Source of the DNA: Torpedo marmorata
Lineage: Eukaryota
Reading direction: 5' to 3'
Length of the DNA: 64,000 nt
Assembly (NCBI GenBank): GCA_977017645.1
Contig: OZ360222.1
Location: forward strand, 107,322,001 to 107,386,000
Shown here: positions 5,318-53,136 of the stretch, piece after piece
Layout: each line of letters opens with the position of its first letter
How positions within the stretch are numbered: the stretch's first letter is position 1
Position numbers and translations under genes: made by a program
The notes under the pieces: generated by a model
What the model saw: only the letters and a program-made list of their open reading frames with translations
Database searches by the model: none
Told to the model about the DNA's origin: nothing

Positions 5318-7514
5318 TTTTTAAAAAATATTTTATTTAAATTTTTAAATCACACAATACATAATTCAAAATATATAGTTTCCAAAATACAGTGATATAA
5401 ATTTCCTCCCCCCACACCCTCCCACCCCTCCCCAACCCCCCCAACCCCACTACTCTAAAAATAGAAAAAGAAAAAAGAGAAAAAGAAAAAAGAGATTAAT
5501 AGTGAGGAGAGAACCATCTAAAAACTAATTTTAATCTGGAGGTTAAACTCGCCAATAGACCTGATTTCTAGAAATTTCAAATCCTTAAACCCATAACTCT
5601 CATATATGGGCTCCAAATTTTTAAAAAAGAATGATATTTATTACGTAAATTATAAGTAATTTTTTCCAAAGGAATACATGAACGAAGTTCTGCATGCCAT
5701 CTATCCAAATTTAAATCTAAATCTGATTTCCAAGTAATAGCAATACATTTTTTTGAAACAGCTAAAGCAATTCGTAAAAATTCTACCTGATACATATTCA
5801 ATCTATTCCTAATACTAAATTTTCTAATATCTCCAAATAGAAACAACATAGGATCCATTGGAAACCTAACATTAAAAACTCTCTCTAAAAAATTCTTAAC
5901 TTTAAGCCAAAAATCTTGAATCTTTGAACATAACCATGTAGAATGAACAAAAGAGCCTACTTCATTCTTACATCTAAAACACAAATCCGACAATGTCGGA
6001 TTAAATTTCTTTAATTTTTTCGGCGTTAAATATAATTGATGAAAGAAATTATATTGTACTAATCTGTACCTAACATTAATAACTTTAGTCATACTTAACT
6101 TACATAAATCTTCCCAATGTTTTTGAGCTATATTAATATTTAAATCTAATTCCCATTTTAATCTTGATTTATGTAATCCTACTTTAGGCATTTTTCTCTG
6201 AAATAATTTATACATTTGAGAAATAAACTTATTAACATTTGCTTTAGTAATTAATAATTCTAACTCATTATACCTTGGAGCAATCAAATTTTCTCCTAAT
6301 TTCTCAACCAAAAAAGCTTTAACCTGATAATAAGCTAACCATGTATTATCTAATATATCAAATTTTTCTTTCAATCTTTGAAACGTAACAAATCTTCCAG
6401 CTTCAAAACAATCTTTAAAATTTTTAATACCTATTTGAAACCATGTTTTCAATAACTGATTATTCATAGTAAATAATAAAAGTGGATTTTGATATAATGG
6501 CATATTTAAAGAAATTGTTCCTTTCCCGCCTATTTCTTTATCTACCTGTGTCCATACTTCCAATAAATGCTTAATAATCGGTAAATTTTTCTTTTTAACT
6601 AATAATAATTTAGAATTCCACTTGTAAATAATATCCTCTTTATAATTTTCTCCTATATTATTTAATTCTATATTAATCCAAGCAGAAGTTTTAGCTAAAT
6701 CAAAAAATTTATTAACACATTTTAATTGAGCTGCTTTATAATAATATTGAAAATTAGGGAGTTGCATTCCTCCCATCTCATAATTCCATGTTAACTTCTC
6801 CATACTCACTCTTGCTAACTTCTCTTTCCATAAAAATTTCCTAACTATAAATTTTAAATCTTTAAAAAAAATTTTTGGAATTCCAAAAGGAATTGATTGA
6901 AAAAGATGTTGAATTCTTGGAAAAATATTCATCTTAATACAATTTACTCTCCCCATTAAAGTTATAGGTAAATCTTTCCAATTTTCCAAATCTTTCTTTA
7001 TTTTCGTAAATAAGGGTACATAATTTAATTTATATAAATTTTCTAATTTTGTATCCACTTTTACTCCCAAATATTTAATTCCTTCTTTTGCCCACTTAAA
7101 TTCCGTAACTTCTCTACATCTAGTATAATCACCTTGAGATAAAGCCATTATTTCACTTTTATCCGCATTAATTTTATATCCAGATATTTCGCCATATTCT
7201 GTTAATATAATAGCTAAATGTTGAAGTGATGAAACTGATTTCGTCATGTATATTAATACATCATCTGCAAACAAACTGATCTTATGTTCTTCCATACCGA
7301 CTTTAATCCCTACTATATTAGGATCTGTCCTGATCAATTCAGCTAAAGGTTCTATTGCCAAAACAAATAAAGCTGGTGATAAAGGACAACCCTGTCTTGT
7401 AGAACGCGTTAAAGAAAATTTTGACGATATTTGTCCATTTGTATTTACTTTAGCTGTAGGTTCTTTATATATAGTTTTAATCCAATTTATAAAAGTATTC
7501 CCAAAACCAAATTT
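5318..7514 (-). mobile_element. 5'-truncated L1/Tx1-clade LINE with open ORF2 3' half (5577..7361 and upstream)
   Basis: RQGCPLSP, ISLFADD, IKYLGV and C-terminal CFRC..H..W.C motifs. A-rich tail. 16-bp TSD TCTTATTATTCATCTT at 5302-5317 and 7515-7530. Confidence 0.95.
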
Positions 7515-7777
7515 TCTTATTATTCATCTTATGTATAATTTTTAATTAATTTAGAGATACAGCACGGTAACAGGCCCTCCGGCCCACGAGTCCACGCCAC
7601 CCAAATACACCCATGTGACCAATCAACCTACTAACCACGTACGTCTTTGGACTGTGGGAGGAAACTAGAGCACCCAGAGGAAACCCACGCAGACACGGGA
7701 AAAACGTGCAAACTCCTTAGAGATAGCGCCAGATTCAAACCCAGGTCGCTGGCACTGTAATAGTGTTGTGCTAACCA

Positions 7778-9147
7778 CATAGGCGTATCTAGGGTATGGC
7801 AGCCAGGGCACATGTCCTGGGCTCCACTTGAAGGGGGGGCGCCACTGCCCACCAATCCTCGTAAGAGTTCAAAAACAAGCTCGTATGTGCCGCGTTGAGT
7901 GTAGGCGTTGTTGACACCCTCTGCCGTTCAATGTCGGTTCCCTTGACCCGTCTGTACCTTGGAGGCGCCAGTTCAGCGTCCCCTTCGCTGCCGGTGTCCT
8001 TGCTCACCCACCGAAACCCGTACACATTCTGCTGTGGGCTTCCTATTAAACCCAGCACTGAGCATTCTCCGAGGGGCGTGGGCTCCAGCACCAATCCTCC
8101 TTTAACGATGATGTAAAAAAATAAATTCTACGCAGTGTGCGCAGCGAGCTCGGCAAGCAAGCAGCTGAATGTTGGCAATTTGTGGCGCGCACACACCGGC
8201 AGAGCCTGGAAATTATTCACCCCCCCCACCCCCGCCCCAAGCCCAACTCCCCCAACATCCCTTGTCTGACTTATTTCAAACAGAATACCTTTCAGACCAG
8301 CGAGAGAATAATTGGCGTTAGTACTTTTACTATAACCGCCGAGGGGAGGGTTTGGAGTCAGGCGTTGGGAGCTCCGATCCAAACCCTCCTCTCAGCCTAC
8401 ACCGGAGCTCCCGACACCTGACTCCGATCCATCCCCTCAGCCTACAGCACACGCACACCGGACTCCGGTGTGCGTGTGCGGTAGTAGGCCGAGGGGAGGG
8501 TTCGGAGTCGGCGTCGGGAGCTCAGGTGTGCGCCTGTAGGCCGACTGCCGAGGGGAGGGTTCGGAGTCGGGTGTCGGGAGCTCTGGTCACCGGAACTCCC
8601 GACTCCGAACCCTCCCCTCGGCCTACACCGAAGCTCACGACGTCTGACTCCAAACCCTCCCCTGTCCCCTGTTGGAGCCAGGGCTGAGGAGGGTGTGCGC
8701 TGAAAGATGAGTTTGAACGTGGGCTTCGGCATCTTCCTGCTTCTCTCCCACCGGATGCTTGGCGCTGAGAGTCACCTTTCACTGAAGGTAAGAGAAGGCC
8801 ACTCCACCTTTACCTTAGGCCGCTCCACTCTGGCCCGGGGAATACCGCTCGCTACTTTCATTCAGCGAATGCTGGCCTTTGAAGTAGGCAGAGAGTTTTT
8901 TTAAATTGAAACGACTGTCGTGTTTTTTAAGGTGCAGATTATTTTCCAATATCTCAATATATCCAACACAACGTTGGATATGACTATTTTAGGGTTCTAC
9001 AGCGGCGAGGACAGGTAGGGAAGGTGAAGTGGATGGTGTGGCGGCGGCGAGGGATGGTTGCGGGGTGAAGGGTTGAAGTAAGTTTTAACAGGGGGGGTGC
9101 AATTTCAGTGCTTGCCATAGGTGCTATTTTCCCTAGATATGCCACTG
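7778..9147. mobile_element. Non-autonomous hAT-superfamily DNA transposon (1370 bp)
   Basis: Imperfect 17-bp TIRs CATAGGCGTATCTAGGG / CCCTAGATATGCCACTG. Perfect 8-bp TSD GCTAACCA (7770-7777, 9148-9155). No transposase ORF. Confidence 0.9.
8338..8664. repeat. Cluster of direct and inverted ~37-bp GC-rich repeats inside the hAT element
   Basis: GCCGAGGGGAGGGTTYGGAGTCRG at 8338, 8488 and 8547. Reverse-complement copies at ~8379-8430, ~8598-8622 and ~8645-8664. Confidence 0.85.
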
Positions 9148-9576
9148 GCTAACCAATATACTAACCATGTGTTAGCCTCTTACTTGGAGTGACCAATGGA
9201 TTCCCAAAAGAGAATTCCAGCATCACAGGAAGAAATAACCCGTGCAAGTGAAATTAGGGCCACCTTTGTGGCCATATGTCAGCACTCACACATACATATT
9301 TGCTGATAAAAGAGTTAAACATTGACTTTTGCATCAGACAATCCCATTACCAAGAGATTTTGATGGAGGAGAATGGGGACACAGGTTTGTGAATGTTTGT
9401 CTCAGTGCAATGCTGCCCCATAATCTTAGTATGCCATGCCAGTAAAGAAGTGGAGTGGTCACATCTCATTGGAACCCAATTGGCTGTACCTACCAACCAA
9501 TGACCAACCAGATCCACAGATATTATTAGAAAAGCAATGGAAGGAGACCAAAAGATTAGCACAAGATCGATTAGAG

Positions 9577-9753
9577 CAGGGGTGGCCAACCTTTTAATTT
9601 TTAATTTAGACATACAGCACGGTCACAGGCCATTTCGGCCCACGAGTCCGTGCCGCCCAATTAACCTACACCCCCGGTACGTTCTCGTGGGCCGAAATGG
9701 CCTGTTACCGTGCTGTATGTCTAAATTAAAAATTAAAAGGTTGGCCACCCCTG
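9577..9753. mobile_element. Hairpin MITE with hAT (Charlie-like) termini and SINE-derived arms, copy 1
   Basis: ~70-bp near-perfect inverted arms starting CAGGGGTGGCCAACCTTTT. Perfect 8-bp TSD GATTAGAG (9569-9576, 9754-9761). Arms and loop match the SINE 3' end. Confidence 0.92.
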
Positions 9754-12700
9754 GATTAGAGTGATATGCTGACTGATATAAGTTGTTCAAAATGATTCAG
9801 GAAAAGGGAATTGTCCATAAACAAAAGCAGTGAGGTGCTGCCTGCCTGGATCCTGTGGAAAGATGGTGGACAGCAACCATTTGACATTGCTTTCAAAATA
9901 AAATCTTAAACCTCCAAAATCTGGCAACTTTAAGTCGTGTTCATGAAGCCGTGGGAAACCGTTTCATGAATTTTAAAGCTTCATATACCACTCAACATTA
10001 ATAATCAAATTTACAGGCCTGTACTCTCTGAGAAAGGGGCTGTGAAAAGATCGGTTCCTGATTATCATGGGGAGTCCTGGTCTAATGACTGGTGAAGTAC
10101 CCTTACAAAGTTGCTCCAACTTTGAAATGTCCATGCCTACAAAACAAAAAAAAAACAGATTTAATCCCAGACTTAATGGCGTTGAGCATACATGGACTAT
10201 TGGAGAAGATGAACAAATAGAGTAACATTTCCCATTCTTCTTCAGGTAAGACTGATTGACTCATACCTGCAAACAAGATGAGGCAGCCAATATTCAAACA
10301 GATTCTTTACCAAACAAAGGAAAGGGTGAGTCATGGATATTTACAATTTAAAATTCCAATAACAATATTTCTTAAGCAAAATCAATGAGCAAAATTCAAA
10401 GGTTAGCTTAGTTCCAAAATTCAAAAGATCAAAACTTGTCACGAAAAAATTAGTTGGGGATTTTTAGAATGAAAGCAAGAGCAATCTACGAACTCCACAA
10501 GGATTTAGTCACATGACTACCAACTTTTTCAAATGTGCTGTTCTAAAAGTAATCCCTTTGAGTTAAAGTGAAGTCAGAACCATGCCATTTATCGTGCATT
10601 GAATAAAACAGTACTGGACATGGACTGTATTTACCACTTACTAGAAAAATCTCGTCTTCGGGAAATCATTTGTCAATAATATACTATTCAAAAATACGGC
10701 GGTCTCATTGAATTGGCATCCTAGATGGTGCAAATCCCAAAAGGGACTTCTTACACTGACCAAAAAGCAATTTAACCACTTTACCTTAAAAGTTGCTCTG
10801 AAATTTGTTCACCTGCATAATTCTCAATGACCCCATTTTGAGCAAGTTTAGTGACACAGGAACACAACAGAAATCTCCTGCTTCCAAAAGAAAGAAATCT
10901 ACTATTTTATCAAATGTTACAAATTTTAAGTCCTATTACAAATTTAGCTCAGACTTCAAGGAAATAACAATAGAAAGGTATTATCGAACCACCACAACAG
11001 AAGAATGCAAATTGGAACTCTCTAAGCAGAAAACAGCAGGAAGGAAGTGAATGAATCGGAAGAGAAGATTTCCAACATGATTCCTGGACACTATGCATCA
11101 CCTGCTATTAAAAATACCGGTATGTAACTGGGCTGAAAATATCCATTCCAATGAAAGAGTGGATCTACCCCCACAAACTCAATTTTAGTATTGTGGCAAT
11201 GGTCTCTTCTCAATGTTATTTCATAAAAAGTCTTATTATCTCCAGACCAAGTAGGCTTGGAGACCTGATCAAGACGTACAGCAATTTCATTGCCATCTCT
11301 TGTTTGTAGAGGTCCCATATGGGTAAAAGCACTGTAAATTGATTGCATGTATGTGGGGGAAATCTCTTAACATTCAACGCATTTTTTCTGAACTTGGGTG
11401 TTTCTGTCAAACCAGCAAATTTTCCTTTGTTTCAGCAGCAAATTCTATTTTTATTTGACCCATAATAGATAAAACTCCACACTGAGCTAGAACTAGGATT
11501 TTGATACTGAGGTTCCCCCACCCTCCAGAGGTAAGATCAAAAGCTGATCAACTCACTATCTGAGACAAGGTAAAGTAGTTCAACCCAAACTGCATTAATT
11601 TCCACTGAGCAATGCATAATATTGAATTGAAGTCACAAATTTAAGAATGTCACAACAAGGCCTTTCTACTGAAAGTATCAATATACATGTGTATCAACTT
11701 AATCTGATAACATTGGTTTTGGATAAGTAAATACACAAGTCACTATTAAAATACTTGAAGATATTGATAAAATGCATATAATTAGAAAAATTAAGTAATT
11801 ATGTCTGTTTCCATTTCCAATAAATGAAACCTGGTGTGATTCTGCCCTTAAAGTCCTCACATTTCATAAAATACGAGAGGTTAATCATTTGAGGGAGAAA
11901 AGGTCAGATTGCTTGTGAAAAATAAATATCGTTCAATTCATGGTATTTTTTTGTTTCTTGTTTTGCAGAAAATGCACTAAGGACAAATAGGTATCAGAAC
12001 TTATTCAAGCAATCAAGAGCCCAAGGCTGACTTCACAAGGTAGTAAAAGTTAATTGCCATTCATTTGTTTTCTACCTAGGACTTGATACCATCTCCATTA
12101 GAGAGAGAACGTGGCGCATAGACCATAGACGTCAAAATTAAATGACCCTGGGTGGTAGCAGTGTTGTATTTTAGAATCTAATCTTTTTTTTGCTTTCTAA
12201 GCAAATAAATTTGTTAACCAAAATATAAACTGATCAGATGCTTATTACAAATCAATCTTTTCATTTTGATGCATGAAACCAGAATTGATTTGCATAGCCA
12301 ATATCAAGGAGACACGCTCCCAATCCTTGAGGTAACACCCTGCTGTCATTTGCAAGTCCATGGGGTTTTTGATTCAATACAATTTGGAACCTGGAAAATG
12401 GATTCTTTCCAAAAAGAACATGGGGATTTTAATACTGACATTCAAATAAAGTTGACTGAAGCTGATACACAACGGAAATTATTCTCACAAAGAGATTTCA
12501 GCAAATAATACACTTTCCTTTCTGGTATAAAAAATCTTGTAACTGGAGCAATATAAAAATATCTTCCACCAATCATGATAGAACATGAAATTCCTGATTT
12601 CTGTTTATTGAAAAATCAACTATCAATAGAGATGGAACACATTCACTGCACTGTGACCACAGTGACAACACAAATCTTTTGTGATGATGTTATGTATTAT

Positions 12701-14169: not shown

Positions 14170-15165
14170 TAGATGAAATGTTTGGATTGGCAACCAGTAA
14201 CTGATAGGTTCCACAGGGATGAATGAATGAGGCCCCAACATTCATTCATATTATGAATGAAATCTCATTTTATTTAATCTATACTGATGACTTGGATGAA
14301 GGGACTGGAGTCAAATTTGCAGGTGGGTTAGCAATTTTGTGAGGAGGGACACAAATAGGTTGGGACTGGGCAAGAAGCTGACAGATGGAATATAATCTGG
14401 GAAAATGTGACCTTACCCACTTTGCAAGGAAGACTGTAAAAGCAAATTATTATTTAAATGGAGTGAGACCACAAGATTTTGCAATGCACGGGGAACTGGG
14501 GACCCCGGTACATGAAACACAAAGGGTTGACGTGCAGGTACAGCAAATATTTGGGAAGGCTAATGGAACATTGGGCTTTATTGCAAGGGATATGGAGTGT
14601 AAAAGTAGGTAAAATTTGATACAACTTTGCAGGGTGGGGATGAGACCCCACCTGGAGTACTGTACACAGCTTTGATTTCCATATTTATGAAAGGATGTAC
14701 AGTACTCATAATGGAGGCAGTGCAGAACATGTTCATTAGGTTGATTCCTGGCATGAAGGGGGTTGAAGATAGTATGGCATCCTATGGCATAGGTGCTCTG
14801 TGGTTAGTAAGGGATTACTTAAGGCGGTATGTGAGTGGGGAAAAAAGGTTGAGAACCACTGCCCTAGTGGGTGTGCCTGGAACAAGGTGCACAGTCTCTG
14901 AATAAGTGGTTGCACGATGTAAGTGGGAGGCGAGGTGGAATTTCTTCTCACAGAAGGTCATGAATCTTTGTAAATCTCTACCTTTGAAAAGAGTGGATAT
15001 GGAGTCATTAAGTACGTTCACAGCCAAGACTGACACTTTAAACCAGTAGGTCAAGGATGATGAGGAGAGAGTGGGGAAAGTGGCATTAAGGCCAGGAGTG
15101 AATGAGCCATGTCCTTGGCAGGAAAAGGTTCTGGGTGCCAACTAACTTACTCCTATTTCTGATGG
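14170..15165 (+). mobile_element. Degraded CR1/HER1-like LINE 3' region
   Basis: Decayed ORF2 C-terminal motifs (W.MEYNLGKC, KANGTLGFIAR, RPHLEYC, FFSQKVMNL) and a CR1-type 3' end with TACTCCTATTTCT. Confidence 0.8.
14770..14862. mobile_element. Right end of a hAT/Charlie-like MITE within the CR1
   Basis: Terminus AAAGGTTGAGAACCACTG (reverse complement CAGTGGTTCTCAACC) followed by CCCTAG. The left TIR is not visible. Confidence 0.6.
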
Positions 15166-17544: not shown

Positions 17545-18606
17545 ACGAAAATCTGTAGACACCATGGTTGAAGTAAAAAACACAAATGCTGGAGAAAGTC
17601 AGCAGGTCAAACAGTGTCTTTTATGTAGCAAAGGTAGAAATACATAACTGACGTTTCGGGCTTGAGCCCTTCATCAAAGTATGAGAAAATGCCGGCAGGC
17701 GTCCGAACAAAAGAGTGAGGGGGGAAGGGGGGGTGGCAAAGGCAGGAGATGATAGGTGGAGAAAGGAGGGAGGGGACAGCAGCAAAGAGGGGGAGGAGGG
17801 ATGGCTGGGTAGGTGGAGAAAAGCAGGAAGGACAGGTGAGGGGGGAGGGGAAGGGAACGACAAGCAGGTTTAGTGGAAAGCAGAAAAGTCAATGTTAATG
17901 CCATCTGGCTGGAGAGTGCCAAGACGGAAAATGAGATGTTGTTCCTCCAATTTGCGGGTAGTCTGGGTGGGATAGTACATGAGGCCATGGACAGACATGT
18001 GAGTGTGGGAGTGTGACCCGGAATTGAAATGGTTGGCTACTGGGAGGTCGCTGTTGTTGCGGACGGAGAGGAGGTGCTCAGCAAAGCGGTCTCCCAATCT
18101 ACGACCGGTCTCTCCGATGTAGAGAAAGCCACAAAGGGAGCACCGGATGCAGTAAATAAGTTCTCTGGATGTACAAGTGAAGTGTAGTTTCACTTGGAAG
18201 GCCTGTTTGGGGACCTGGACCGTGGTGAGGGGGGAGGTGTGGGCGCAGGTGTTGCACCTCCTGCGGGCACAGGGGAAGGTGCCGGGGGTGCGATGGGTGG
18301 GGAGGGATGAGTGCACGAGTGAATCGCGGAGGGAGCGGTCCCTACGGAAGGCCGAGAGGGGAGGAGAAGGAAAAATGTGTCTGGTGGTGGGATCCTGTAG
18401 TAAGTGCCGGAAATTCCGGCGGATAATGTGTTGGATGCGGAGGCTGGTGGGGTGGTAGGTGAGGATGAGGGGGATTCTATGTTTGTTGCGTCTGGGGGCA
18501 GAGGGGGCCAGGGCAGATGAGCGGGAAATGGAGGAGATGCGGGTGAGGGCTGAGTTGATGGTGGTGGAGGGGAGGCCACGTTTGTGGAAGAAGGCAGACA
18601 TTTCAG
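17545..18606 (-). mobile_element. 5'-truncated Penelope-like element: GIY-YIG endonuclease ORF (17870..18601) plus pLTR
   Basis: LIYCIRC...LYIGETGRRLGDRFAEH...EQHLI...GIN is a GIY-YIG endonuclease preceded by a C..C..C linker, typical of Penelope/Poseidon elements. The 3' region recurs at 55315-55510 and 34170-34300. Confidence 0.92.
17643..17683 (-). ncRNA. Minimal type-I hammerhead ribozyme motif in the Penelope pLTR
   Basis: Minus strand CAUACU-UUGAUGA-A-GGGC(UCAA)GCCC-GAAAC-GUC^AGUUAUG. It has both core boxes, stem II, a palindromic ACGU in place of stem III, and a 6-bp bulged stem I. Confidence 0.75.
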
Positions 18607-18692
18607 AAGATCTTCATTCATCCAGTTCTTCATTCAGGTTTAATGAAATAGTGAAAAGCAGAGTTCTCAGTACATGTCCATCACTAGAGATG

Positions 18693-27197: not shown

Positions 27198-29212
27198 CTA
27201 ATCAGTTTTTATATCATTATTTAACAAGCGCTCACTGTGCCATTTTTTCATGTGTTTCTCGAGGGTACTATACACGCTAAAAGGCATCTGACAAATTTCA
27301 CATTTGTAAACGTCTTTCCCCACCTGACCGTGCGTTTTCATGTGTCGTGTAAGCTTGCTACTCTGGGCACAGGCGTAGTTGCACAGGTCACATTTGTATG
27401 GTCTCTCGCCCGTGTGGCTTCTCCGGTGGACTGTGAGATTGCTGCAGTTCTTGAAGATTTTACCGCAAAATTCACACGTGTCACTTCGCTTGCCCTCCTT
27501 GGAGCTAGGCCGCCCTGGACCAGGTCCAGTGATGTGTGGAGTGCTGCCGCCACTTCCTGTGCCGCTCCGACCTGAGATCCCACCGTCCATCTCACCTGGG
27601 GGAGTGGAAAAGCGTAAACTTCCATTTTCTGAAGAGTGCTCGGATGAAGTTGCAAAAGGCGATTGTCTGGAGTCTCCAAAGCTGAGGAACGGGTCTTTCA
27701 TCTGCCGTGAGGCAGCGTAACCAGCAAGCCACTGTGAATAAACATTATCTGTGGGAGCCAAAGGTGCTGAGGGCAGGTCAAAGTCTTTTTCAAGCTTAAT
27801 GCGTTTGGAAAAAGGGCTGAGAGATGTCGGGCTAACCAATATAGGCTTTTTTGATATGCCCCCAGAAGCCGATTCACCTGGTGAGGAACCTCTTCCATTG
27901 ACTGTACCATCATCTGTGCGATCAGATTCACCAGCAACTGAGTCCTCATCATAAGTGTCTCTGTGAACTTCTGCTTCAGAAGAGTGATGAGTCCGCTTGT
28001 GTTTATCCACCAAGACTTGATGGAAGGCCTCACCGTAATGCTGCATGGTGTTCATAGTAATGTTGTGCATTACTTCAGGGAGAGAGCTCTTCTCCTCCAC
28101 AGGCCGTGAGCTGTTCTCATGATGACGCCCGCCCTCAAGACTGACGCCAAAGGCAAATTCAGACCTATTTTCATTCTCGGGTTCCTCCTCTTCCTCCTCT
28201 TCTTCCTCCTCTTCTTCTTCCTCTTCCTCCTCTTCCTCTTCCTCCTCCCCATTTTCTGGAATCATGTTGGCATCAGTTTCGCTCTTGTACTTGGCTACCA
28301 CTGACTTGAGAGCACTGCTGGCACTGCCAACAAGGTCACTTGTCCCAGGTTCGGGAGAGCTTGCAGTGGAGAGTCCATCATCTGACTTGACTGTCATGGG
28401 CGATGACTTGTGCAGATGTGTTTTCATGTGCCTCTTTAATTTGCTGGCCTGAGTGCAGGCGTGATCACAGAGGTGGCACTTGTACGGTTTCTCACCAGTG
28501 TGGCTTCGGCGGTGCACAATCAAGTTGCTCTGAAACTTAAAGGTTTTCCCACAGAATTCACAGGACTTGGACTTGAGAACACTCTGTGCAGGAGGGGCTG
28601 TGGACTGGAGGGGTGGGAGGGGCGGTGTGCTGAGAAATGGAGATTTGTTACTTGATTGGAATGGTTGCAATAGCCTTTGCATGGGACTTGGCCGGTTTGG
28701 TGACAATGGAGGAGTGGAGGTATTGCCAGCTAATTCCCTAAGTCTTCTGGAGAAATCCATTGATGGCGGCTCAATCGGTATGGAGTTAAGACGCAGTACC
28801 CTGTCAAAGGCACTGTTATGATGTGCTGCTGCCATAGCCATCTCCTCAACACTCAGACGATCCATTCGATGAGGGTCCAGGTGATGCCGGGGCGGAGGGC
28901 TAAACAAGGGAGGTGTAGGGGGAAAGCGGCCTTCTACAAGCCCTGGTGTTTCCCGAGAGACAGGCCCAGACATTCTCAGTAGGTTGAAAGGACTATTATC
29001 TGCCACGTGAAGTCCATGAAGGGGGGGTTGAGGGCCACAATCTGCCCCAAGTCCCGAAGGAATCCCAACCCGTGGCGTCAAGGGACTTCCATGCTCAGTC
29101 TCCAAATAAATTCGGAATCCATGGGTGTTCTGGGCATGTTGGAGGAGAAACCATGCGCTGTTGAATGGCTGTTTGCAAGTTGTGCAAGTGTAACTGCTCG
29201 GCTCATCCTTCC
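27198..29212 (-). CDS. BCL11A: BCL11A (CTIP1/EVI9) large terminal coding exon, six C2H2 zinc fingers, XL-type C-terminus
   Basis: Acceptor TTTTCTCTTGCAG|GG (phase 1) before [18 protein letters not shown]1, ZF2-3 (KSCEFCGK...), a 22-Glu acidic run, then ZF4-6. The end [10 protein letters not shown] fits BCL11A (RVLNNDIKTE) and not BCL11B. Upstream exons are not recognised in the window. Confidence 0.97.
28182..28247 (-). repeat. (GAR)22 poly-glutamate coding repeat
   Basis: 22 consecutive GAA/GAG codons counted from the sequence. Confidence 0.97.
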
Positions 29213-30069
29213 CTGCAAGAGAAAACAAATAATGCCAACATGAAGACCTCTGCAAACCACACTCTGCCACTATCTTGCCACTTAAAACACCTATTTTAAA
29301 AGAAAAGGTTTTAAAGAAACTTGCACCCCAAATTTAATGGAAACTGTAAAGGTGCCAGGAGGCAACTTGAATGACTGAGTCAATTTCTCTTCATTCTAAG
29401 TGACCTAATTGATAAGAGATCTACAGCCTCACAAACCCTGTTGCAATGGTCAGTTAGGACACATGTGCATGTTTACTTACATTGTTTCCAAGATTCTTTT
29501 AGGTGTGTCTCTGTGAATCAGCAAAACAAAGCAGGATGTAAAGTACACTTCATCCTGAATTTTATATCATTACTTTAACTAGGAGTTGATTTCTCTTGGT
29601 AACAAATTTAAAGTACTCTTATAATTAAAGAGGAATCAATACATGAACATTTCCCATTAATCTGGTCAAACCACACAGGCATTGCTCACCTACTTAAAAA
29701 CCTTGCTTGCAATGGTAATTTTTCTTCTGTTTGGTAAATAAAGTCACTCTTGACCACACATTTCTCTATCAAACCTTCTTGGCAGTTTGCTACCAATCTT
29801 TTTTTTTAAATTGAGCTAAGTCCTAAAACGTGAATCAGACAGTAAAAAAAAAGATTTTTTCCATTAAGACAAGGTGGAGACGCCAGTTAAAAAGGCTTTC
29901 AACGGGGACAAGCATATTCACAAATGCAAATCCTCAACTTAATTCCCTACATTATCAATGCAAACCCACCCTGCTCTGCCCAGTTTGAGAATGGTCAACA
30001 GATGAGATGACATAACTATTTATCCTTGGTTTCCTCCACTTCAAATTTATGGTTAAGAATTGGTTCAAG

Positions 30070-32203
30070 ACAACAAGACAAGGATGTCCATTGTCACCTG
30101 CTTTATTTGTATTGGCAATAGAACCGTTGGCGGAAATGATTAGGAAAGATATTAATATAAATGGGATAAAAGTAGGTGTAGAAGAGCATAAAATTAGTTT
30201 GTTTGCAGATGATGTATTAATATATATGACAAAGTCTATTAAATCACTTCAACAATTAGATAAAATATTGAGGGATTATGGTGAAATATCTGGATATAAA
30301 ATTAATTCGGATAAAAGTGAGATAATGGCTTTATCTCAAGGAGACTATACTAAATGTAAAGAAGTTACAAAATTTAAATGGGCTAAAGAAGCTATTAAAT
30401 ATTTGGGAGTTAAAGTGGATACAAAGTTAGAAAATTTATATAAATTAAATTACATACCTTTATTTCAGAAAATAAAGAAGGATTTGGATAATTGGAAAGA
30501 TTTACCCATAACTTTAATGGGAAGAGTGAATTGTATTAAAATGAATATTTTTCCAAAAGTTCAATATCTTTTTCAATCTATACCTTTTGGTATTCCTCAA
30601 AAATTTTTTAAAGATTTAAAAATTATTATTAGAAAGTTTTTATGGAAAGGAAAATTGGCAAGAGTAAGTATGGATAAATTAACTTGGGAATACGAAATGG
30701 GTGGATTACAACTCCCTAATTTTCAATATTATTATAAGGCAGCACAATTAAAATTTATAAATGAACTATTTGATTTAACTAAAAATACGGCTTGGATTAA
30801 TATAGAATTGAGTAATATAGGAGAAAGAAATAAGGAAGATATTATTTATAAATGGAATTCTAAATTATTATTGATTAAAAAGAAAAAGTCACCGATTATT
30901 AAACATCTATTGGAAATTTGGAATCAATTAGATAATGAAATAGGACGAAAAGGATCAATTTCTTTAAACATGCCATTATATCAGAATTTATTATTACCAT
31001 TTTCTATTGATAATCAATTTTTAAAATTATGGTATCAAAAAGGAATTAAGAAGATTAAAGATTGTTTTGAGGCAGGAAGATTTGTTACTTTTTCTAGATT
31101 GAAAGAAAAATTTGGAATAATGGACAATACAGTTTTGGCTTATTATCAAGTTAAAGGATTTTTAGTTGAGAAATTAGGGAATCAATTAATATCCCCTAGA
31201 CAAGATGGGTTAGAGTTATTAATTACTAATGGAAATGTTAACAAATTTATATCGCAAATGTATAAATTACTTCAGAAAAAAATGTTTAAAGTAGGACTAC
31301 ATAAATCTAGATTAAATTGGGAATCAGATCTAAACACTAGTATAGATGAACAACACTGGAAAGAACTATGTAAACTGAGTATGACTAAGATTATTAATGT
31401 TAGATATAGATTAGTACAATATAATTTTTTTCATCAATTATATATAACACCTAAAAAATTAAAGAAATTCAATTCGGCATTGTCAGATATGTGTTTTAGA
31501 TGTAAAGATGAAATAGGTTCTTTTGTACATTGTACATGGTTGTGTTTGAAAATTAAAAGTTTTTGGTCTAAAGTCAAGGAATTTTTAGATAGAATTCTTA
31601 ATATTACGATTCCAATGGACCCTATGATATTTCTGTTTGGAGATATTAAAAAAATTAGTATTAGAAATAGATTGAATATGTACCAAATAGAATTTTTACG
31701 AATTGTGTTAGCAATTTCAAAAAAATGTATTGCTATTACTTGGAAATCAGATTTAGATTTAAATTTGGATAGATTACATGCAGAGTTACGCTCGTGTATA
31801 CCATTGGAAAAAATTACGTATAATTTACGAGACAAATATCATTTCTTTCTGAAAATTTGGAGCCCATACATGAGAATTATGGGTATGAATTAATTCTCTA
31901 GAAGTTAGTACCGCTGACAAAGTAACCTCCAATATACAAGTAGAGTTAGCTTGAAATAGTTTTTCTCCTCATACTAACACTAACTTTCTTAACTTTATTA
32001 TTCAATCTTTTTCTTTTCTTTTAATTAACATTTTTATACTCTATTTTTTTCTTTTTATTAGATAGCGTGGGAGGGTTGGGGAGGGGAGGGTGGGAAGGGG
32101 GGGTGGTAATATATCACATGTATTTTCAATAATATACTATTTTTTTGATATATGTATTTTGTGATTTTAAAAAAAATTAAATAAAATTATTAAAAAAAAA
32201 AAA
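30070..32203 (+). mobile_element. 5'-truncated L1/Tx1-clade LINE, same family as 5318-7514, antisense in the BCL11A intron
   Basis: Uninterrupted ORF2 3' half to 31893 (RQGCPLSP, LFADD, CFRC..H..W.C), AATAAA and poly(A). 15-bp TSD AAGAATTGGTTCAAG at 30055-30069 and 32204-32218. TT/AAGA target site. Confidence 0.96.
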
Positions 32204-39770: not shown

Positions 39771-39920
39771 TAAATACCTATCGTTACTAACACCATATAC
39801 CATCTTTTGGCCCACAGCCTTCTACGTTGTAGCATGTCAGGTGCTCGCATTCAGAATGTTTGCGAGAGAACCCCTCAGAGAGTATCCCTCAATCTCAACT
39901 GCTATTACAAAAATCTAGCC

Positions 39921-40205
39921 TCTCCTGTCTCCACCATCCTCTCCTGTCTCCACCATCCTCTCCTGTCTCCACCATCCTCTCCTGTTTCCACCATCCTCTC
40001 CTGTCTCCACCATCCTCTCCTGTCTCCACCATCCTCTCCTGTCTCCACCATCCTCTCCTGTCTCCACCATCCTCTCCTGTCTCCACCATCCTCTCCTGTT
40101 TCCACCATCCTCTCCTGTCTCCACCATCCTCTCCTGTCTCCACCATCCTCTCCTGTCTCCACCATCCTCTCCTGTCTCCACCATCCTCTCCTGTCTCCAC
40201 CATCC
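39921..40205. repeat. 19-bp minisatellite (TCTCCTGTCTCCACCATCC)x15
   Basis: 285 bp equals 15 units. Units 4 and 10 carry the same C>T variant. Confidence 0.97.
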
Positions 40206-41609
40206 TCTCTGGCAGCCTGTTCCAGATTTCAACCACTCTTTGAATGCAAAAAAATTCTTCCTCAAATCTCCTCCAAATGTCTTAAACACAAGTTCTCTGG
40301 CTATCGACACTACTGCAAACAGAAAATATTTCTCAATATTTATGCTATCTATACCCTTCTTAATTTTGTTGACCTCACTCAAATTATCTCTCAATTTCCT
40401 CTGCTATAAAAAAAATCTAGCCTCTCCAGTTTCTCCTCATTGCTGAAATGCTATCCAGGCAACATCCTGGGGAATCCTCTCTGCAGCCACTCCAAAGCAG
40501 TCATGTCCTTCCGATAGGGCAGCAAGTAGAACTGGACACAGTACTCCACCTGGGACCAACTACTATTTAATACAAGTTGTCCCACAACTTCCTTGATCTT
40601 ATATACCAGGTTCTATCTAATAATGGCAAATATCCTGTATGCTTTTTTTTCACCACCTTATCTATTTGTGCTGCTGCCTTTAGATGTCCATGGACGTACA
40701 CCAAGGTTGATCAGTTCCTCATTACTTCCCAGGGACTTACCACTCAAGTCTCTACACAAGTCCTGTTGCTCTTCCCAAAATGAAGGACTAAATTCCACCT
40801 GCCATTGCTTTGCACCTCTTATGAACTCATCAATATAACTCAATAGACACAGAATGTTACTGTACACAAGAAACAGAAAGAGACCCAGCACCATTCCCTG
40901 TGACTGGTTACAGGCTTCCAATCACAAAACAAACTTCTACCTCTTATCACCAAGCCAATTTCAGATCCAATTGGTCGTTTTCCTGGATCCCATGGGCCCT
41001 TGCATTTTGGACGTTTTCCATGTAGGACCTTGTCAAAGGCCTTACTGAAATCCATGTAAACTATATCAACTGCCTTACCCTCACTGACACACTTATTCAC
41101 CTCCCTGAAAAATTCAGTCAAGCTCGTCAAATAGGGTTTCCCCTTAACAATTCCGCATTTCCAAGTCCATATTTATCCTGTCCCTCAGATTTTATTTTCA
41201 ATGGTTTCCCTACCACTGACATAAAATTCACAGACCTATAATTACCTTGCTTATCTTCTTGAGTAAAGATGCCACATTTGCTGTCCTCTTGTCATCTGGC
41301 ACTTCAGGTATCATCAGAAAAGATTTGAACATTTCTGTCAGGAGCCCAGTAATCACCACCCTTGTCTCCCATTGCCATCTGAGATACATTTCATCAAGCC
41401 CTGCTAGCTTATTCATCTTTAAGTCTGCTATGACATCAAATAGCTCTTCCTTTTTTTAATGCTAACTTGTTTTAAAATTTCACTGTTCTCATTCCTGAAT
41501 TCGCCAAACATCACATCATGTCCATTTCCCAGGTGAATATGCTGAGAACTATTCATTTAGGACCTCACCTGTGTCCTATGGCTCCTCAGATTGGTTCTTT
41601 GGTCCTTCC

Positions 41610-42130: not shown

Positions 42131-42238
42131 CACGTACCAGGGGTGTAGGTTAATTGGGTGCAAATTGGGCGGCACGGACTCGTGGGCCGAAATAGCCTGT
42201 TACCGTGCTGTATGTCTAAATTTTTTTTAAAATTAAAA
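42131..42238 (+). mobile_element. 5'-truncated SINE (3' part only)
   Basis: CGTACCAGGGGTGTAGGTTAATTGGG...GGGCCGAAATAGCCTGTTACCGTGCTGTATGTCTAAA. Confidence 0.85.
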
Positions 42239-42538
42239 TCAGCCTTCTCCTAAATCAGGACCTTAATTTCCATTCTATCTTGTCCTGCCCCATAACCACC
42301 TGAAAACCTGCAAGATTCTGGTCACTATCAAGTCAACATCCTTTCCATTTACTTGGCTACATTCCCAAAGATTAGATCAAGTACTGTCCCTTCTCTAGTA
42401 GGACTAACCAATATTGACTCAAAGCTTTCCAGATGCACTTTAAATATTTCACCTCCTGTAAGCCTTTCACACCAAAGTGTTCCCAGAAGTTAAAATGTCC
42501 TACCACTGTTCTCCTATTGTTTTTGCACTTTAGATTAA

Positions 42539-42771
42539 CAGGGGTGGCCAACCTTTTAATTTTTAATTTAGACATACAGCACGGTAACAGGCCATTTAGA
42601 CATACAGCACGGTAACAGGCCATTTCGGCCCACGAGTACGTACCGGGGGTGTAGGTTAATTGGGCGGCACAGACTCGTGGGCCGAAATGGCCTGTTACCG
42701 TGCTGTATGTCTAAATGGCCTGTTACCGTGCTGTATGTCTAAATTAAAAATTAAAAGGTTGGCCACCCCTG
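42539..42771. mobile_element. Hairpin MITE with hAT termini and SINE-derived arms, copy 2
   Basis: Same termini as 9577-9753 with the loop in the opposite orientation. A 28-bp tandem duplication is present in both arms. Flanks GATTAA(CA) / GATTAGCA form an imperfect TSD. Confidence 0.9.
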
Positions 42772-43698
42772 GATTAGCATATATTTTATAATAATCCATA
42801 AAGGTTCCAAGAAGGCTCTCAGCAACCACTTTCCTCATGAGGCCAATGCAAAACACAATCCAGTCAATAATCTCAAGCAAGAGGGATCATAATAAGTCTC
42901 CTTACCAACTATTCCATTAAATATGATTCTGCCTCCATTTCCTTATATCTATATACTGCCAATGTACATCAATCTTCTGCACTTCTATCTCTTGGAACTT
43001 ACTGCTATGAACAGATTTTGTAACTAGATTTTGGAAAACCCACCTCACTGCTAAACTCTGCCCTAAAAGGAAAATAATTCCTGAAAATTAGATGCCCTGG
43101 CAGCAAGTAGATTTTGCTATAATCCCTACCAGTGAAAGTACCTTTGGTAAACCATCTTACTTACTTATTGCAATACTGGAGGAGGGCATTCAGCCCAATG
43201 GGTCAATGCTGTCTCCCAGAAGAACAAACCAATCAGTCCCATTCTCCCTTTCTTACTTCACTGTACACCTGTAAATTATCTCCTCTCATACGTCCATCCA
43301 CTTCCCCTTTGATTATTTTACCACTTACTGGGGTAATTTACAGGTGGATATTTTTTAAATTATTCATCCAAGGGATGTGGACTTCACAGGCTGAGCTAAC
43401 ATTTAATTGCCCACCCCTATTTGCCCTTGAGAAGGTGGTGGTGAGCTTCCTTCTTGTACCACTGCAGTCCTTGAGCTGTGCAGTTTGGGAGAGAGGTTCC
43501 AGGATTTAGACTCAGCAATGGTGAAGACACAGCCATATATTTCTCAGTCAGGGTGGTGTACAACTTGGAGAGCAACTTCCAGATGGTGGTGTTCTCATTT
43601 ATTTTTGCCGCTCTTGTCCTTCTAGCTGGCAGAGGTTGTGGGATTGGAAGGTGTTACCTAAGCAGTCTTGGTGAGTTGCTGCACTGTATCCTGTAGAT

Positions 43699-44795
43699 CA
43701 GGGTTTCCCAAACTGGGTTCCGTGGAAAAGAGTAAGGGTTCCGTGGAAGAGTGACAGGGAGTAATAATGTGATACCTGTTTTTCTTTAATTTACTTATTT
43801 CTTCTGTCCTTAATTCAATTTGTTTCTGGGACGGCAGCAAACTGTACACTCCACCCAAAAAAAAAGGCGTCATGAGGCCTGACGTCAGCAGTGCAGACGT
43901 CAGGCCTGCGCATCATTTTTAACCAATGAGAATCCGAATTCTTCTGGCGCGAAGCCGGCGAAGGAGCTGACCATATTGTGCCCAACATTAAGAAGATCTG
44001 TGACGGCAACAAATAATTTCAACTTGGAGAATGGTAAGTTTATTTATTTTCTTACTATACTTTTTTATATACCAGGTATTGCAATAGTGGCGCACTTCTT
44101 TTTAATTATTTTTAATGGGGCGGCATGGTTGGCGTAGTGGCTAGCGCAACGCCTTTACAGCACCAGCAATCGGGACCGGGGTTCGAATCCCGCGCTGTCT
44201 GTAAGGAGTTCTCCCCCTGTCTGCGTGGGTTTTCCCCGGGGGCTCCAGTTTCCTCCCACTGTTCGAAATGTACCGGGGGTGTAGGTTAATTGGGTGTAAA
44301 TTGGGCGGCATGGACTCGTGGGCCGAAATGGCCTGTTACCGTGCTGTATGTGCAAATTTTTTAAAATGTAATCATACTTACCTCAAAAAATCTGAAAGAA
44401 TCATCAGAAAATTATCGAATATTACAATTTCTTAGTAATACAGAATTATTAAGGGATAAATAAAAACTAAACTTAATTTCTTTGAGAATAAATAAATACA
44501 CGTAAGTATAAAAAAGGATTCCACTTTTTCATCACTTTGTATATTTACACATGCATTATTTAAATTTAAAAGTGAAAAGATTAAATCCCAAATCAACCGT
44601 TTCAACCTTTGTTTGAACACAAGGTAAATTATTTTATTTATCTCTTATTATTATCATTACTTGCGGGGGTGTTTCTCATTATTGTAATAACGAGGGAGCA
44701 CTGTACTTCCGCAAACTGTACATGAAGATTAGGGTTCCGCCATTTCGAAGTGCTCCCTAAAAGGGTTTCATGAGCTAAAAGTTTGGGAAACCCTG
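43699..44795. mobile_element. Non-autonomous hAT (Charlie-like) element containing a SINE
   Basis: Perfect 16-bp TIR CAGGGTTTCCCAAACT. Perfect 8-bp TSD CTGTAGAT (43691-43698, 44796-44803). Confidence 0.93.
44117..44365 (+). mobile_element. Full-length young V-SINE/HE1-like SINE
   Basis: A box TGGCGTAGTGG, B box GGTTCGAATCC, V-like central domain and CR1-type tail. Confidence 0.92.
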
Positions 44796-46824: not shown

Positions 46825-48095
46825 CCTCAGCACCCTCTTCCCTCTAACTGGATCCATGACTTCCTGTCTAACAGATCGCAATCAGTGAAGATGGGTAACA
46901 ACATCTCCTCCATGATCACACTCAGCACTGGCGCTCCTCAAGGATGAACTTAGTCTCCTCCTACAAGCCCTCTATACCCATGACTGTACAGCTAAATACT
47001 GTTCCATCTCGATCTTCAAATTTGCTGACAACACCACAGAAGGGGGCCGGGTATCAAATAACGATGAGATGGAATCCTGGAAAGAGACTGAAAGTCTGGT
47101 GCCAAGATAACAACTTCTCTTTCAACCTCAGTTAAATGAAGGAAATGATCATTGACTTCAGAAGCGAAGACAGAATATACAAACCTGTCCATAATAATGG
47201 CAGCTAAGTGGAAGGAGCAGATAGCTTCAAGTTCTCAGAAATAAGGCAGCACGGTTAACGCAACGCTGTTACAGCGGCAGCGATCAGGACCAGGGTTCGA
47301 ATCCCGCGCTGTCTGTAAGGAGTTTGTACGTCCTCCCCGTGTCTGCGTGGGTTTTCCCCGGAGGCTCCGGTTTCCTCCCACCCTCCAAAACGTACCGGGG
47401 GTTGCAGGTCAATTGGGTGTGATTGGGCGGCACGGGCTCGTGGGCCGAAATGGCCTGTTACCGTGCTGTATGTCTAAATTTAAAAATAACCTGACATGGG
47501 ACAAAAACACTGCCACGACAGTCAAGAAAGCACACCAACGCCTCTATTTTCATGGAAGACAAAGGAAGTTCGGCATGTCTCCCTTGTCCTTCAACAACTT
47601 CTTCAGGAGCACCATTGAAAGCATACTTACTGGATGCATCACAGCGTGGTATGGGAGCTGCTCGGCTCAAGATTGGAAAACTCTTCAGATGGTGGTGATT
47701 GAAGCTCAGAACATAGCACAAACTTCCCTCCCCTCCATGGACTGCATCTACATCTCCCGCTGCCTAGGAAAGGCAGCCAACATATTGAAAGACCCATCAC
47801 ATCGTGGACACACACTGTTCTCCTTGCTCTCATCACAGAGAGTGTGAAAGCAAACACCAACAGATTTAAAGGCAGTTTCATCCCCGCAGCCATCAGGTCC
47901 TGAATGAACCCCGTAAATGTCCTATCATGCTGTCCTTGTTGGTACTAATTTATCATTCTTTCATTGCAGTCCTATGCTCTGTAAATTGTGCTCATTACGC
48001 GATTGTATAAATGTTGGAGATAATTTGTTAGTCTGCTCACAGAAAAACCCTTCTCACTGTACTAGGTACAACGTGACAGATAAACTTAAATATTG
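46825..48095 (+). mobile_element. Degraded Rex1/Babar-like LINE 3' half
   Basis: [64 protein letters not shown]. Frameshifted and paralogous to 1-955. Confidence 0.88.
47245..47483 (+). mobile_element. Young V-SINE/HE1-like SINE inserted in Rex1
   Basis: B box GGTTCGAATCC, central domain and tail. Possible short TSD AAATAA. Confidence 0.9.
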
Positions 48096-49751: not shown

Positions 49752-52700
49752 TTTTTTTGTTGAATATTTTATTTTTTCATTTTTCACAAAAAGATTAACA
49801 ATTTATACATAATCGTACAATTTCCAATTGTATACATTATTTTAAAATTTCCCTTCCCTCCTCCCCAACTAAAGAGGAAAAAACAAAACCTAAAAAACAG
49901 AAATTACAAATAAAAGAAAAGAAAACTAAACGTTCCGTTAGTGCTTACATTGCTTTTCCCATCTTTTTGGAGACGTCACACCATTAATTTGTTATACATT
50001 ACATTTTGCTGTACCTTGGAGTTTGAGTTATAACTGGGCCCCAATGTACTCCAGGTATGGTTGCCACACCTTAACAAATGTATCGTATTATTCCTGATAC
50101 TGTATGTAATTTTCTCCATGGGAATACAGCTGTGCATTTCTGTTGACCATCGAATGATAAGAAGGGGGGAGTCGGACTTCCAAGTTATTGCTATACATTT
50201 CTTTGTCACGGACAAAGCTACCTTTACAAATTGAATTTGAAATTTAGATAATTTATAGCTGATGTCCATTAAATTTCCGAAAAGATACAACTCCGGGTCC
50301 AGCAGAAAGTTTACCCCCGTAATTCTGGTTAGTGTATTAGATATGTCATGCCAAAAGGGGCGTACCTTTACACAGGACTAAGTGGAGTGCAGAAAAGTTC
50401 CAGTTTCTACACCACATCTAAAACACATCTCTGATATTTCAGGTTTAGACTTGTGTAGTTTTTGCGGTGTAAGATATAATTGGTGTAAGAAATTATACTG
50501 GATCAGTCTGTATCTGGCAATAATAACCGCTGTCATACTATGCCTACACCAGTCTGACCAGAAACGTTCGAGAATTGTTGTACCCAGGTCCGACTCCCAC
50601 CTCTCCCTCAATCTATCTATACCTGGTTTAGGGCTTTCACTCTGTAAAACAAAGTACATTCTGGATTAAATTTGAGTGAGTTTCCCAGCCAAAGTATCTG
50701 CTCCACCTCGTTGCTAATAGGTGGGGTCATTGTAGAGCCCCACCTTTCTCGCAAAAAGGATCTTAATTGGAGAAAACAGTAAAAGGTTCTATTAGACAAA
50801 TCATATTTATCTCTAAGTTATTCGAAGGACATGAGTTTTTCATTGTGATAGCAATCCTCAATATAACGAATCCCCTTTTGGTACCAATTATCCCATATTT
50901 TGTTGCCCAGATTCATGGGTATAAGTTCATTTTGAAACAGGTGTATTGGGAGATATTCCAACTTTTTCTCCAATAGTCGTTAAGTTCTTGCCAAATTTTA
51001 ACTATATGCTTCAAAATGGGATTATCCGTTATTTTGGATATTAGCTTAGTATTCCATTTGTAAACAAAATCTTTAGCTATTTTATCCCCTGTAGCATTCA
51101 GTCCAATTTGGACCCATGGAGGGGTATCACCCTCCTCAAAAAAAGTTAGAAGAAACCGCAACTGGGCTGCTAAATAGTATTTCTTAAAATCCGGTAATCG
51201 TAAACCCCCCAGTTTATAATCCCACGTCAGCTTTTCCATGGAGATTCTAGAAACTTTGCCATTCCAAATAGACTGTCTTACACATCCATTGAGTGTTTTA
51301 AAAAAGGTTTGTGGCAAAGGTATAGGTAAAGATTGAAAGAGATATTGGAGTTTCGGCATCACCATCATTTTGATACAGTTTACCCTACCCACTAATGTGA
51401 TGGGCAGGCTTCTCCATCTAAGTAAATCATCCTCAATCTTTCCAAGCATCGGGAGGTAATTAAGTTTGTACAAATTCTGTAAATTATTGTCAATCATAAT
51501 CCCTAGATATTTCATACCTTCTAGTTGCCATTTAAAGCAACTCCCCTGTTGATATTTCCTATGGTCAAATTTCTTAAGTGGCATAATTTCACTTTTGTCT
51601 ATGTTTATTTTGTATCCTGAAATCATTCCATATTCCTCCAGTGTAGTCTGCAATTTGGTTAAAGACTCAGCCGGTTCTGTTAGATTAACAGTATGTCGTC
51701 TGAAAATTTGTGCTCCACCTGATCCACCTTGAAACCCTTTATTTCTGGATCCCTCCTGATAGTTTCCGCCAAAGGTTCGATTGCTGGCACAAAAAGCCCT
51801 GGAGACAGTGGACACCCTGCCTGCTAGATCTACTCAATGAAAATGTCGACGATATTTGCCCATTTGTTATAATTTTGGCCCGAGGTTTATGATAAAGTGT
51901 TTTTACCCATTGAACAAATGATTGTCCAAGTCCAAACTTTTCGAGTACTTTAAATAAAAAAGGCCATTCCAACCTATCGAAAGCTTTTTCCACGTCTAAA
52001 GACACGGCTATGCTTGGGTCTATTTTGGATTGTGCCAAATGTATTATACTAAGTAGTCTACCCAAGTTATTGGCAGAGTGTCTCCTCTTCACAAACCCAA
52101 CTTGGTCTGAATTTATCAATTTTGGTAAATATTGACCTAGTCTGTTAGCCAATGTTTTGGCTATTATCTTATAATCAGCATTTAGTAATGAAATAGGTCT
52201 ATATGAGGACGGCTTTAGTGGGTCTCTATTTTTCTTAGGCATAACCGTAATGATAGCTGTTGAAAAGGATTCTGGGAGAGTCTGTGTCTCTGCTGCCCGA
52301 TCGACCACATCCATAATAAGAGGCATCAACAAATCTTTGAATTCTTTGTAGAATTCGGGCGGGAAACCATCCTCCCCCGATGATTTATTAGTTTGTAATG
52401 TACTCAAGGCTTTTTCGATCTCCTCACTAGAGAAAGGGGAATTCAATTTCGCCTGGTCATCTTAGTCCAATCTGGGCAAATAGACCTTGGACAAAAAATC
52501 ATCTATCTTAGATAAATCTTGAGGTAACTCTCATTTGTATAATTCTGTGTAGAACTGCTTAAATGTGTCATTTATCTCTCTTGGGTTATGTGTTATTTTA
52601 TCTGGCCCTGATTCAATTGCAATAATTATCCTGGATGTCTCTTCTGCTTTCAATTGCCAAGCCAGGACCTTATGGGCTCTTTCGCCCAGTTCATAATACT

Positions 52701-53136
52701 TTTGCTTGGTTCTCAAAATGGTTTTCTCCACCTGATACGTCTGCAAAGTATTGTATTTAAGTTTTTTGTTTACCAGAGTTTGGTATTTTCCCTTTGAGCC
52801 GGATTGTTGATATTCATTTTCCAATTCCAGAATTTCTCGTTCTAGATCATTTACTTCCGCCAAATATTTCTTTTTAACATTTTTGGTGTACGAAATTATT
52901 TGCCCCCTCAAATAAGCCTTCAAAGTATCCCATATTAAGAAACTGTTATTAGTGGAGGGGCAATTTGTCTCACAGAACAAATTTATCTGACCCCTTATAA
53001 AGTTACAAAAGTCTGTCCTTTTCAACAGCGTAGGATTAAGGCGCCATCTATATACATTTGCCTGTTTTTCTGGCATTACTATAGATAAGATCAAAGGTAA
53101 TAGTCTAGCTAGGTATTCCGATTCGATCACTCTGCC
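49752..53136 (-). mobile_element. 5'-truncated, frameshifted L1/Tx1-clade LINE (third family)
   Basis: ORF pieces 52531..53205, 51739..52446 (KSSGEDGFPPEFYK, YRPISLLNADYKI, SLDVEKAFDR), 50913..51815, 50378..50659 and 49976..50290. 16-bp TSD with one mismatch, TGTCC(A/C)AACTTTTCTT, at 49736-49751 and 53137-53152. Confidence 0.93.

Follow-up and report, generated by a model that had tools for sequence, protein, structure and literature searches.

Two copies of a palindromic element with Buster-type hAT ends and SINE-derived arms in a 64-kb window of the Torpedo marmorata genome

Two palindromic copies and their insertion sites

In the present study a window of 64,000 nucleotides of Torpedo marmorata (the whole stretch of contig OZ360222.1 that was analyzed) was found to contain two copies of a small non-coding element, E1 with 177 bp and E2 with 233 bp, which lie 33 kb apart (Table 1). 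E1 is composed of two inverted arms (9577-9646 and 9684-9753) around a centre of 37 nt, and these arms are complementary at 69 of 70 positions, i.e., with a single mismatch. Arms account for 140 of the 177 bp in E1 and for 198 of the 233 bp in E2, and apart from (TA)n runs no close inverted repeats in the window exceed the two copies in length. The RNA fold computed for E1 amounted to -144.1 kcal/mol (z -23), a stability reached by none of 200 shuffled sequences. The single open frame, which runs through E1 from end to end on the plus strand (9540-9764; 59 codons, 58 aa), showed no Pfam match and is taken as incidental.

E1 is flanked on both sides by GATTAGAG, a perfect 8-bp target-site duplication (TSD) with a chance of 2.3e-5 by composition; repeated 8-mers at the spacing of this duplication were present at 6 of 63,807 window positions. 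When the complete window was screened for terminal inverted repeat (TIR) pairs bordered by 8-bp duplications, four candidates emerged, namely E1, two further elements resembling hATs and a pair that probably arose by chance; E2 was not recovered. The original prediction for this locus had given coordinates, sequence, arms of about 70 bp and the perfect 8-bp TSD of E1 correctly, and had likewise described a second copy at 42539-42771 with a flipped loop and different flanks.

The flanks of this second copy resemble those of E1 no more than random pairs do, with local scores from 17 to 24 in all eight comparisons, against a random median of 19 and a 95th percentile of 24. A segmental duplication was rejected since the flanks are unrelated, and for the same reason at least one move has to be assumed. 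Aligned with E1 in reverse, E2 shows three substitutions in 177 columns (divergence below 2%) and two insertions of 28 bp, and the orientation of its loop is opposite to that of E1. Two traits of E2 go beyond the original prediction: the insertions represent one 28-bp tandem duplication, mirrored in both arms, and the target duplication of E2 is damaged, displaying GATTAA on the left and GATTAGCA on the right with 2 bp missing. The left flank is most simply regarded as an 8-mer that lost 2 bp; a clean hAT duplication is present in one of the two copies (E1). The first six bases are common to the target sites of E1 and E2 though their loops are oppositely oriented, a coincidence with a chance of about 0.5% per orientation given the TA, which plain random targeting does not explain. 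The 8-mer GATTAGCA recurs at 9554-9561, 15 bp upstream of the left duplication of E1, and has three occurrences in the window when both strands are counted.

Table 1. Features of the two element copies and of young SINE copies in the window.
Feature	Position	Strand	Remarks
E1 left TSD, 8 bp	9569..9576	+	GATTAGAG; nnnTAnnn
E1, fold-back MITE, 177 bp	9577..9753		SINE sense = minus strand
E1 left Buster-type TIR, 16 bp	9577..9592	+	identical to Buster2_NA1/NA2_NH TIR
SINE 3' segment, sense	9596..9683	-	end of V-type body, tail stem-loop, AT-rich end
Imperfect 7-bp stem	9649..9681	+	9649-9655 with 9675-9681; 19-nt loop; in register with arms
Second arm	9684..9734	+	inverted copy of last ~51 nt of SINE
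E1 right TIR, 16 bp	9738..9753	-	
E1 right TSD, 8 bp	9754..9761	+	GATTAGAG; same 8-mer as left
5'-truncated young SINE	42131..42238	+	starts few bases from fold-back point of element; 11 bp retained
E2 left flank, 6 bp	42533..42538	+	GATTAA; presumed TSD minus 2 bp
E2, 233 bp	42539..42771		arms 99/99 complementary; SINE sense on plus strand
E2 left arm, two tandem 28-bp units	42566..42621	+	slippage between ATTT repeats
E2 right arm, mirror-image tandem copies of 28-bp unit	42685..42740	+	
E2 right TSD	42772..42779	+	GATTAGCA; nnnTAnnn
Full-length young donor-type SINE	44117..44362	+	A and B boxes; inside hAT 43699-44795
Young donor-type SINE	47245..47492	+	V domain agrees with that of MER6 at 63/72 positions (hand count)

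Terminal repeats and the donor SINE

The first 16 bp of the element are identical at 16 of 16 positions to the TIR of the Buster2 elements Buster2_NA1/NA2_NH (PMC4298943), the only source in which the TIR 15-mer was found in literature text, and a TIR of this type is present at all four tips of E1 and E2. Both target sites carry TA at positions 4-5 and hence conform to nnnTAnnn, the target consensus reported for Buster (PMC3517528; bioRxiv 10.1101/2022.09.16.508221). Together with the 8-bp duplication, the TIR match bore out the hAT-type ends that had been proposed for the element. Similarity to the Buster2 consensus sequences stops after base 16, and of the Buster2 subterminal repeat TGCGGCTC the element contains no exact copy, the best match of 6/8 being about as good as chance. 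Membership of Buster2 proper was rejected on both grounds, as was, owing to the poor match, a mimicry of these repeats by the SINE tail; identity of the TIR does not show descent from Buster2 itself.

The hAT share was set at 16-19 bp per end (32-38 of 177 bp) because the AT-rich tract next to the TIR is similar to the 3' termini of free-standing SINEs, a further point not contained in the original prediction; three T at 9593-9595, following the left TIR of E1, can be read either as hAT or as SINE A-tract. In Tol2, Tag1 and Ac, 100-200 bp of end DNA are needed, and hATs in general usually require 100-200 bp of ends with subterminal repeats (PMC3517528; bioRxiv 10.1101/2022.09.16.508221), so that recognition by a transposase of an element with ends of 16-19 bp is unexplained by known hAT end requirements. 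Within the 64-kb window neither a transposase with the TIR of the element nor, outside E1 and E2, a further exact copy of this TIR was seen, and the two other hATs do not qualify as autonomous partners, their longest stop-free stretches comprising 84 and 121 aa.

About 80% of the element is SINE. A 61-nt core of arms and loop matched the SINEs at 47245, 42131 and 44117 at 58, 58 and 56 positions, respectively, and three older SINE copies at 52-55 positions. Judged by this similarity, the body of the element represents the 3' part of a SINE of the youngest V-type tRNA subfamily, in agreement with the SINE origin previously claimed for arms and loop. The element itself does not qualify as a SINE, as a tRNA-derived head with A and B boxes is lacking; Pol III A/B boxes were found on neither strand of E1 and E2, and a B box was present in all four SINE copies tested. 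Neither Rfam matches nor, by ARAGORN, tRNAs were detected in the window. The 11 bp between two AATTGGG repeats, kept in some form in all six SINE copies, are missing from both E1 (SINE segment 9596-9683) and E2, and the second arm of E1 (9684-9734) is devoid of the 5' strand of the tail's lower stem. Since E1 and E2 share the TIR-SINE junction as well as this deletion, which is absent from the six SINE copies, a single origin of both is concluded. The truncated SINE at 42131-42238 is located 300 bp from E2; that it starts near the fold-back point of the element may be due to chance or may mark a stall site of reverse transcription.

Matches resembling the SINE tail occur at three non-SINE loci in the window (E 2.6e-6, 7.9e-6 and 0.051), which is consistent with a LINE origin of the tail. 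One of them follows a decayed frame similar to a further LINE-like piece, a resemblance equalled by 1 of 300 controls; three other LINE-like pairs in this comparison were not significant, one of them at 14 of 300 controls. When the LINE-like stretch preceding the tail at 59053 was searched against a protein database for CR1 identity, no match was obtained. The partner LINE of the donor SINE tail is presumably CR1, and the HER1 LINE probably belongs to the CR1 clade. From sharks and rays the V-SINE HE1 and the LINE HER1 have been reported (PMC3747384; PMC4824008), besides other shark SINEs (PMC5499810), and on the level of description the donor SINE is similar to HE1 in its tRNA-type head, V domain and LINE-like tail.

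Proposed origin and mode of spread

The element is probably a young non-autonomous fold-back MITE of Buster type (hAT) with a passive SINE body. Its emergence could have begun when a young V-type SINE became linked by its 3' end to a Buster end, 16-19 bp into the latter and at a T/A tract common to both. Retrotransposition of the SINE into this end would be the simplest route; a local parallel is given by the full SINE inside the TSD-flanked hAT at 43699-44795. Slippage would subsequently have removed the 11 bp, a trait which both copies share and which is here presumed to come second, and would have left two imperfect 7-mers 19 nt apart. A nascent strand extending from the TIR into antisense SINE might then have folded back on the 7-bp stem, and 70 nt would have been copied back through the TIR, resulting in a palindrome with two identical ends.

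The stem in question (Table 1) consists of six Watson-Crick pairs and one G-T and stands in register with the arms. When the loop was shuffled, 381 of 200,000 sequences attained its quality (6/7 pairs, in register), and arbitrary axes placed on three real SINE copies equalled it in 45 of 8486, 70 of 8568 and 47 of 8486 cases (0.5-0.8%). The stem is weak, is surpassed at two of the 77 possible 3' ends and came to attention in hindsight; it supports fold-back priming at this place without proving it. With the 11-bp deletion its energy is -3.0 kcal/mol, in contrast to -0.04 in the 42131 copy, and because the stem is negligible with the 11 bp present, the deletion probably preceded the fold-back. 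Fold-back or template-switch origins have been proposed for long-armed MITEs (PMC3814204) and for Angel (PMC5172404).

A different birth of the same element is possible, albeit doubtful: the SINE piece could be filler, acquired by a template switch from the T-tract of the TIR during gap repair, or the fold-back could have taken place on SINE cDNA during insertion, the inverted duplication being trimmed to the TIRs by transposase later on. A T/A overlap of 4 bp at the TIR-SINE junction would fit the capture of filler by template switching, as described in PMC3814204 and PMC5172404, and the free SINE at 42131 stops near the fold-back point as if cDNA synthesis stalled there. However, the natural 3' end of the SINE abuts the TIR, as predicted by retrotransposition, nesting of a SINE in a hAT is seen in the window, and the negligible stem with the 11 bp present places the deletion probably first.

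Once formed, the fold-back MITE would have been moved as a unit by cut and paste through a Buster transposase supplied in trans. Transposition is indicated because the copies occupy two unrelated loci and an 8-bp nnnTAnnn duplication is present. The undamaged TIR tips of both copies, the 8-bp duplication and the lacking Pol III promoter suggest that this transposition was of the mode just described. In the lineage of E2 the arms would have been copied onto each other again, mirroring the 28-bp duplication; unless the arms were collapsed in the assembly, such a duplication presupposes that copying between the arms took place twice. The earlier view of the element was partly supported: hAT-type ends, a SINE origin of arms and loop, a single origin and at least one move were borne out, and its putative spread as a family refers to two copies in 64 kb.

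With regard to copy number, a single additional copy within 64 kb would translate into a density of 0.4-87 per Mb, provided that placement is random; a local hop voids this estimate. The 58-aa frame of the element had no match among proteins of 31-102 aa, and three candidates, none of them significant, among proteins of 103-2000 aa, both collections apparently being devoid of such DNA. Against 1.84 billion representatives two weak matches with 32% and 37% identity over several stretches were obtained, which were rejected as copies of the element since their identity is too low for a family 98% identical. A pattern search in prokaryotic genomes, in which none of 600 matches was confirmed, is uninformative, as the collection is prokaryotic.

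hATs are prone to local hopping, which would agree with a merely local curiosity, i.e., a palindrome born by faulty gap repair at the site of E1 or E2, where the TSD of the parent hAT was kept, followed by one hop of 33 kb. This course of events is considered unlikely. Just two copies are known, 33 kb apart, a bare TIR without subterminal repeats should transpose poorly, and the translated-frame searches yielded no more copies; yet the private differences in each copy and the mirrored duplication of E2 suggest a history of copying, and the empty searches say little, given that the protein collection was also empty for the LINE-like stretch.

A LINE-recognition tail on both strands, as formerly attributed to the element, turned out to be overstated. 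For the free SINE tail a stem-loop of two parts is predicted (1 of 200 and 10 of 200 shuffles as stable in the two copies considered), but its lower stem requires a 5' strand that is situated in the centre of the element, and the whole stem-loop is therefore found on one strand only. The 70-nt arm alone was not superior in folding to shuffled sequences, 167 of 200 of which were as good, and in the predicted fold of the full transcript both tails are locked in a duplex of 70-99 bp. It is highly improbable that the tail lets a LINE reverse transcriptase copy the element as a second mode of multiplication, or that it explains its shape: each strand does end in a sense SINE tail, the free tail forms a stem-loop, and SINE tails recruit LINE enzymes (PMC3747384), but the second arm lacks the lower-stem 5' strand and is unfolded, the long hairpin masks both tails, the element has no Pol III promoter, and both copies terminate exactly at the TIR tips. 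From the modelled folds, LINE-driven copying does not appear plausible. In the Buster-moved MITE preferred here the LINE-type tail would have no role in mobility and a read-through transcript would form a hairpin of 70-99 bp; because both tails are locked in this duplex, double-stranded RNA from the element would be plausible if its sites are transcribed.

An assembly or library artefact, be it a fold-back chimera or arms collapsed by the assembler, is barely conceivable for the element, since the arms of E1 differ at one site and were hence resolved, and an artefact would supply neither the published TIR and the 8-bp duplication nor the same junction at two loci, although the window is scaffolded (157-N gap) and collapsed arms could mirror the 28-bp duplication of E2, for whose mirror symmetry alone an artefact is rather unlikely.

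Little is documented on how long-armed fold-back MITEs arise. In the present element arm donor, junction microhomology, priming stem and second arm copying are all readable, so that the fold-back model can be tested on it cleanly, and the combination of about 80% SINE with a bare TIR renders both this model and the minimal hAT end testable. Should the family be large, 16-19 bp of its own end would be enough for a Buster transposase to mobilise DNA, although subterminal repeats are usually required, and the element would supply double-stranded RNA that matches an abundant SINE; should few copies exist, the element is a tidy curiosity. Quite improbable is a widely and recently amplified Buster-mobilised family with a bare 16-bp TIR, in which the SINE tail replaces the subterminal repeats and which seeds hairpins of 70-99 bp against the tail needed by the active SINE and its partner LINE, that is, a DNA transposon spreading an anti-retrotransposon silencing trigger.

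Related systems and further elements of the window

A V-SINE piece that entered a non-autonomous DNA transposon by retrotransposition is also known from MER6/MER6A, a Tc1/Mariner MITE which carries the piece without its head and was spread by transposase (PMC6887750), and the V domain of MER6 is close to that of the donor SINE (Table 1). As described there, MER6 is an old Mariner element of 865 bp with transposon ends of 56-57 and 101-104 bp and with the SINE as one-directional cargo, whereas the present element is a hAT with about 80% SINE in both inverted arms, 16-19 bp of transposon per end and copies differing by less than 2%. The non-autonomous hATs hobo-N1 to N15 of Anolis amplify fragments of SINE, CR1 and Penelope (PMC3014272); unlike the present element they are long, possess their own hobo ends and, according to the available text, in which the string 'palindrom' has no occurrence, bear non-palindromic cargo. 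Buster2 non-autonomous elements of bat and insects (nhAT-5a/2a_Nhu; PMC4298943) share the first 16 bp and the Buster insertion bias with our element, and an autonomous partner is likewise missing from the account available; they differ by TGCGGCTC subterminal repeats, asymmetric ends and, in that account, the absence of a SINE.

Elements that form a hairpin over their entire length, with arms far longer than the TIR of the parent, have been described as Hairpin, PALTA, Cele and Angel, along with an origin model for Goblin (PMC3814204; PMC5172404). Their arms consist of the transposon's own subterminal DNA or are of an origin not stated in the accessible parts of these sources, whereas in the present element the donor of the arms can be identified as a retroelement and the stem at the junction can still be recognized. 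A description of the element family or of SINE-derived arms was not found in the literature covered, most subscription papers and Dfam/Repbase lying outside this coverage. Novelty of the concept was not supported, MER6 (PMC6887750), hobo-N (PMC3014272) and fold-back MITEs (PMC3814204) being precedents. Each ingredient has a precedent; SINE-built arms together with a bare TIR and no subterminal repeats are unusual.

Further elements were recorded in the window. The non-autonomous hAT at 43699-44795 (1,097 bp), which contains the full young SINE at 44117, is bounded by identical TIRs of 16 bp and by a perfect 8-bp duplication of the form nnnTAnnn, and GGGTTCCG motifs are repeated in its subterminal parts. 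A hAT-like element of 1,370 bp at 7778-9147, with a perfect 8-bp duplication and GC-rich internal inverted repeats at 8447-8626, is inserted in the head of a SINE (7540-7780). At 14791-14861 a LINE-like fragment harbours an orphan end of hAT type, in which the TIR precedes a run of T and the flank conforms to nnnTAnnn; the opposite end was not found in the window. An array of 19-bp tandem repeats at 39862-40266 has grown from a LINE-like 3' coding fragment. Reverse-transcriptase fragments and an LTR-element RNase H/integrase region were located at 5577-7523, 30016-31893, 50913-53226 and 61330-63437, with RVT_1 in all three reverse-transcriptase frames scanned; the first two of these regions are 84% alike in inverted orientation. 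A frame of 247 codons without Pfam match (17870-18613), which we take to be a Penelope-like endonuclease, adjoins a repeat with more copies at 34159 and 55314. On the minus strand an open frame of 711 codons with C2H2-type zinc-finger motifs (27198-29333) was found, presumably BCL11A-like; E2 is situated 13 kb upstream of this long exon and may be intronic relative to it.
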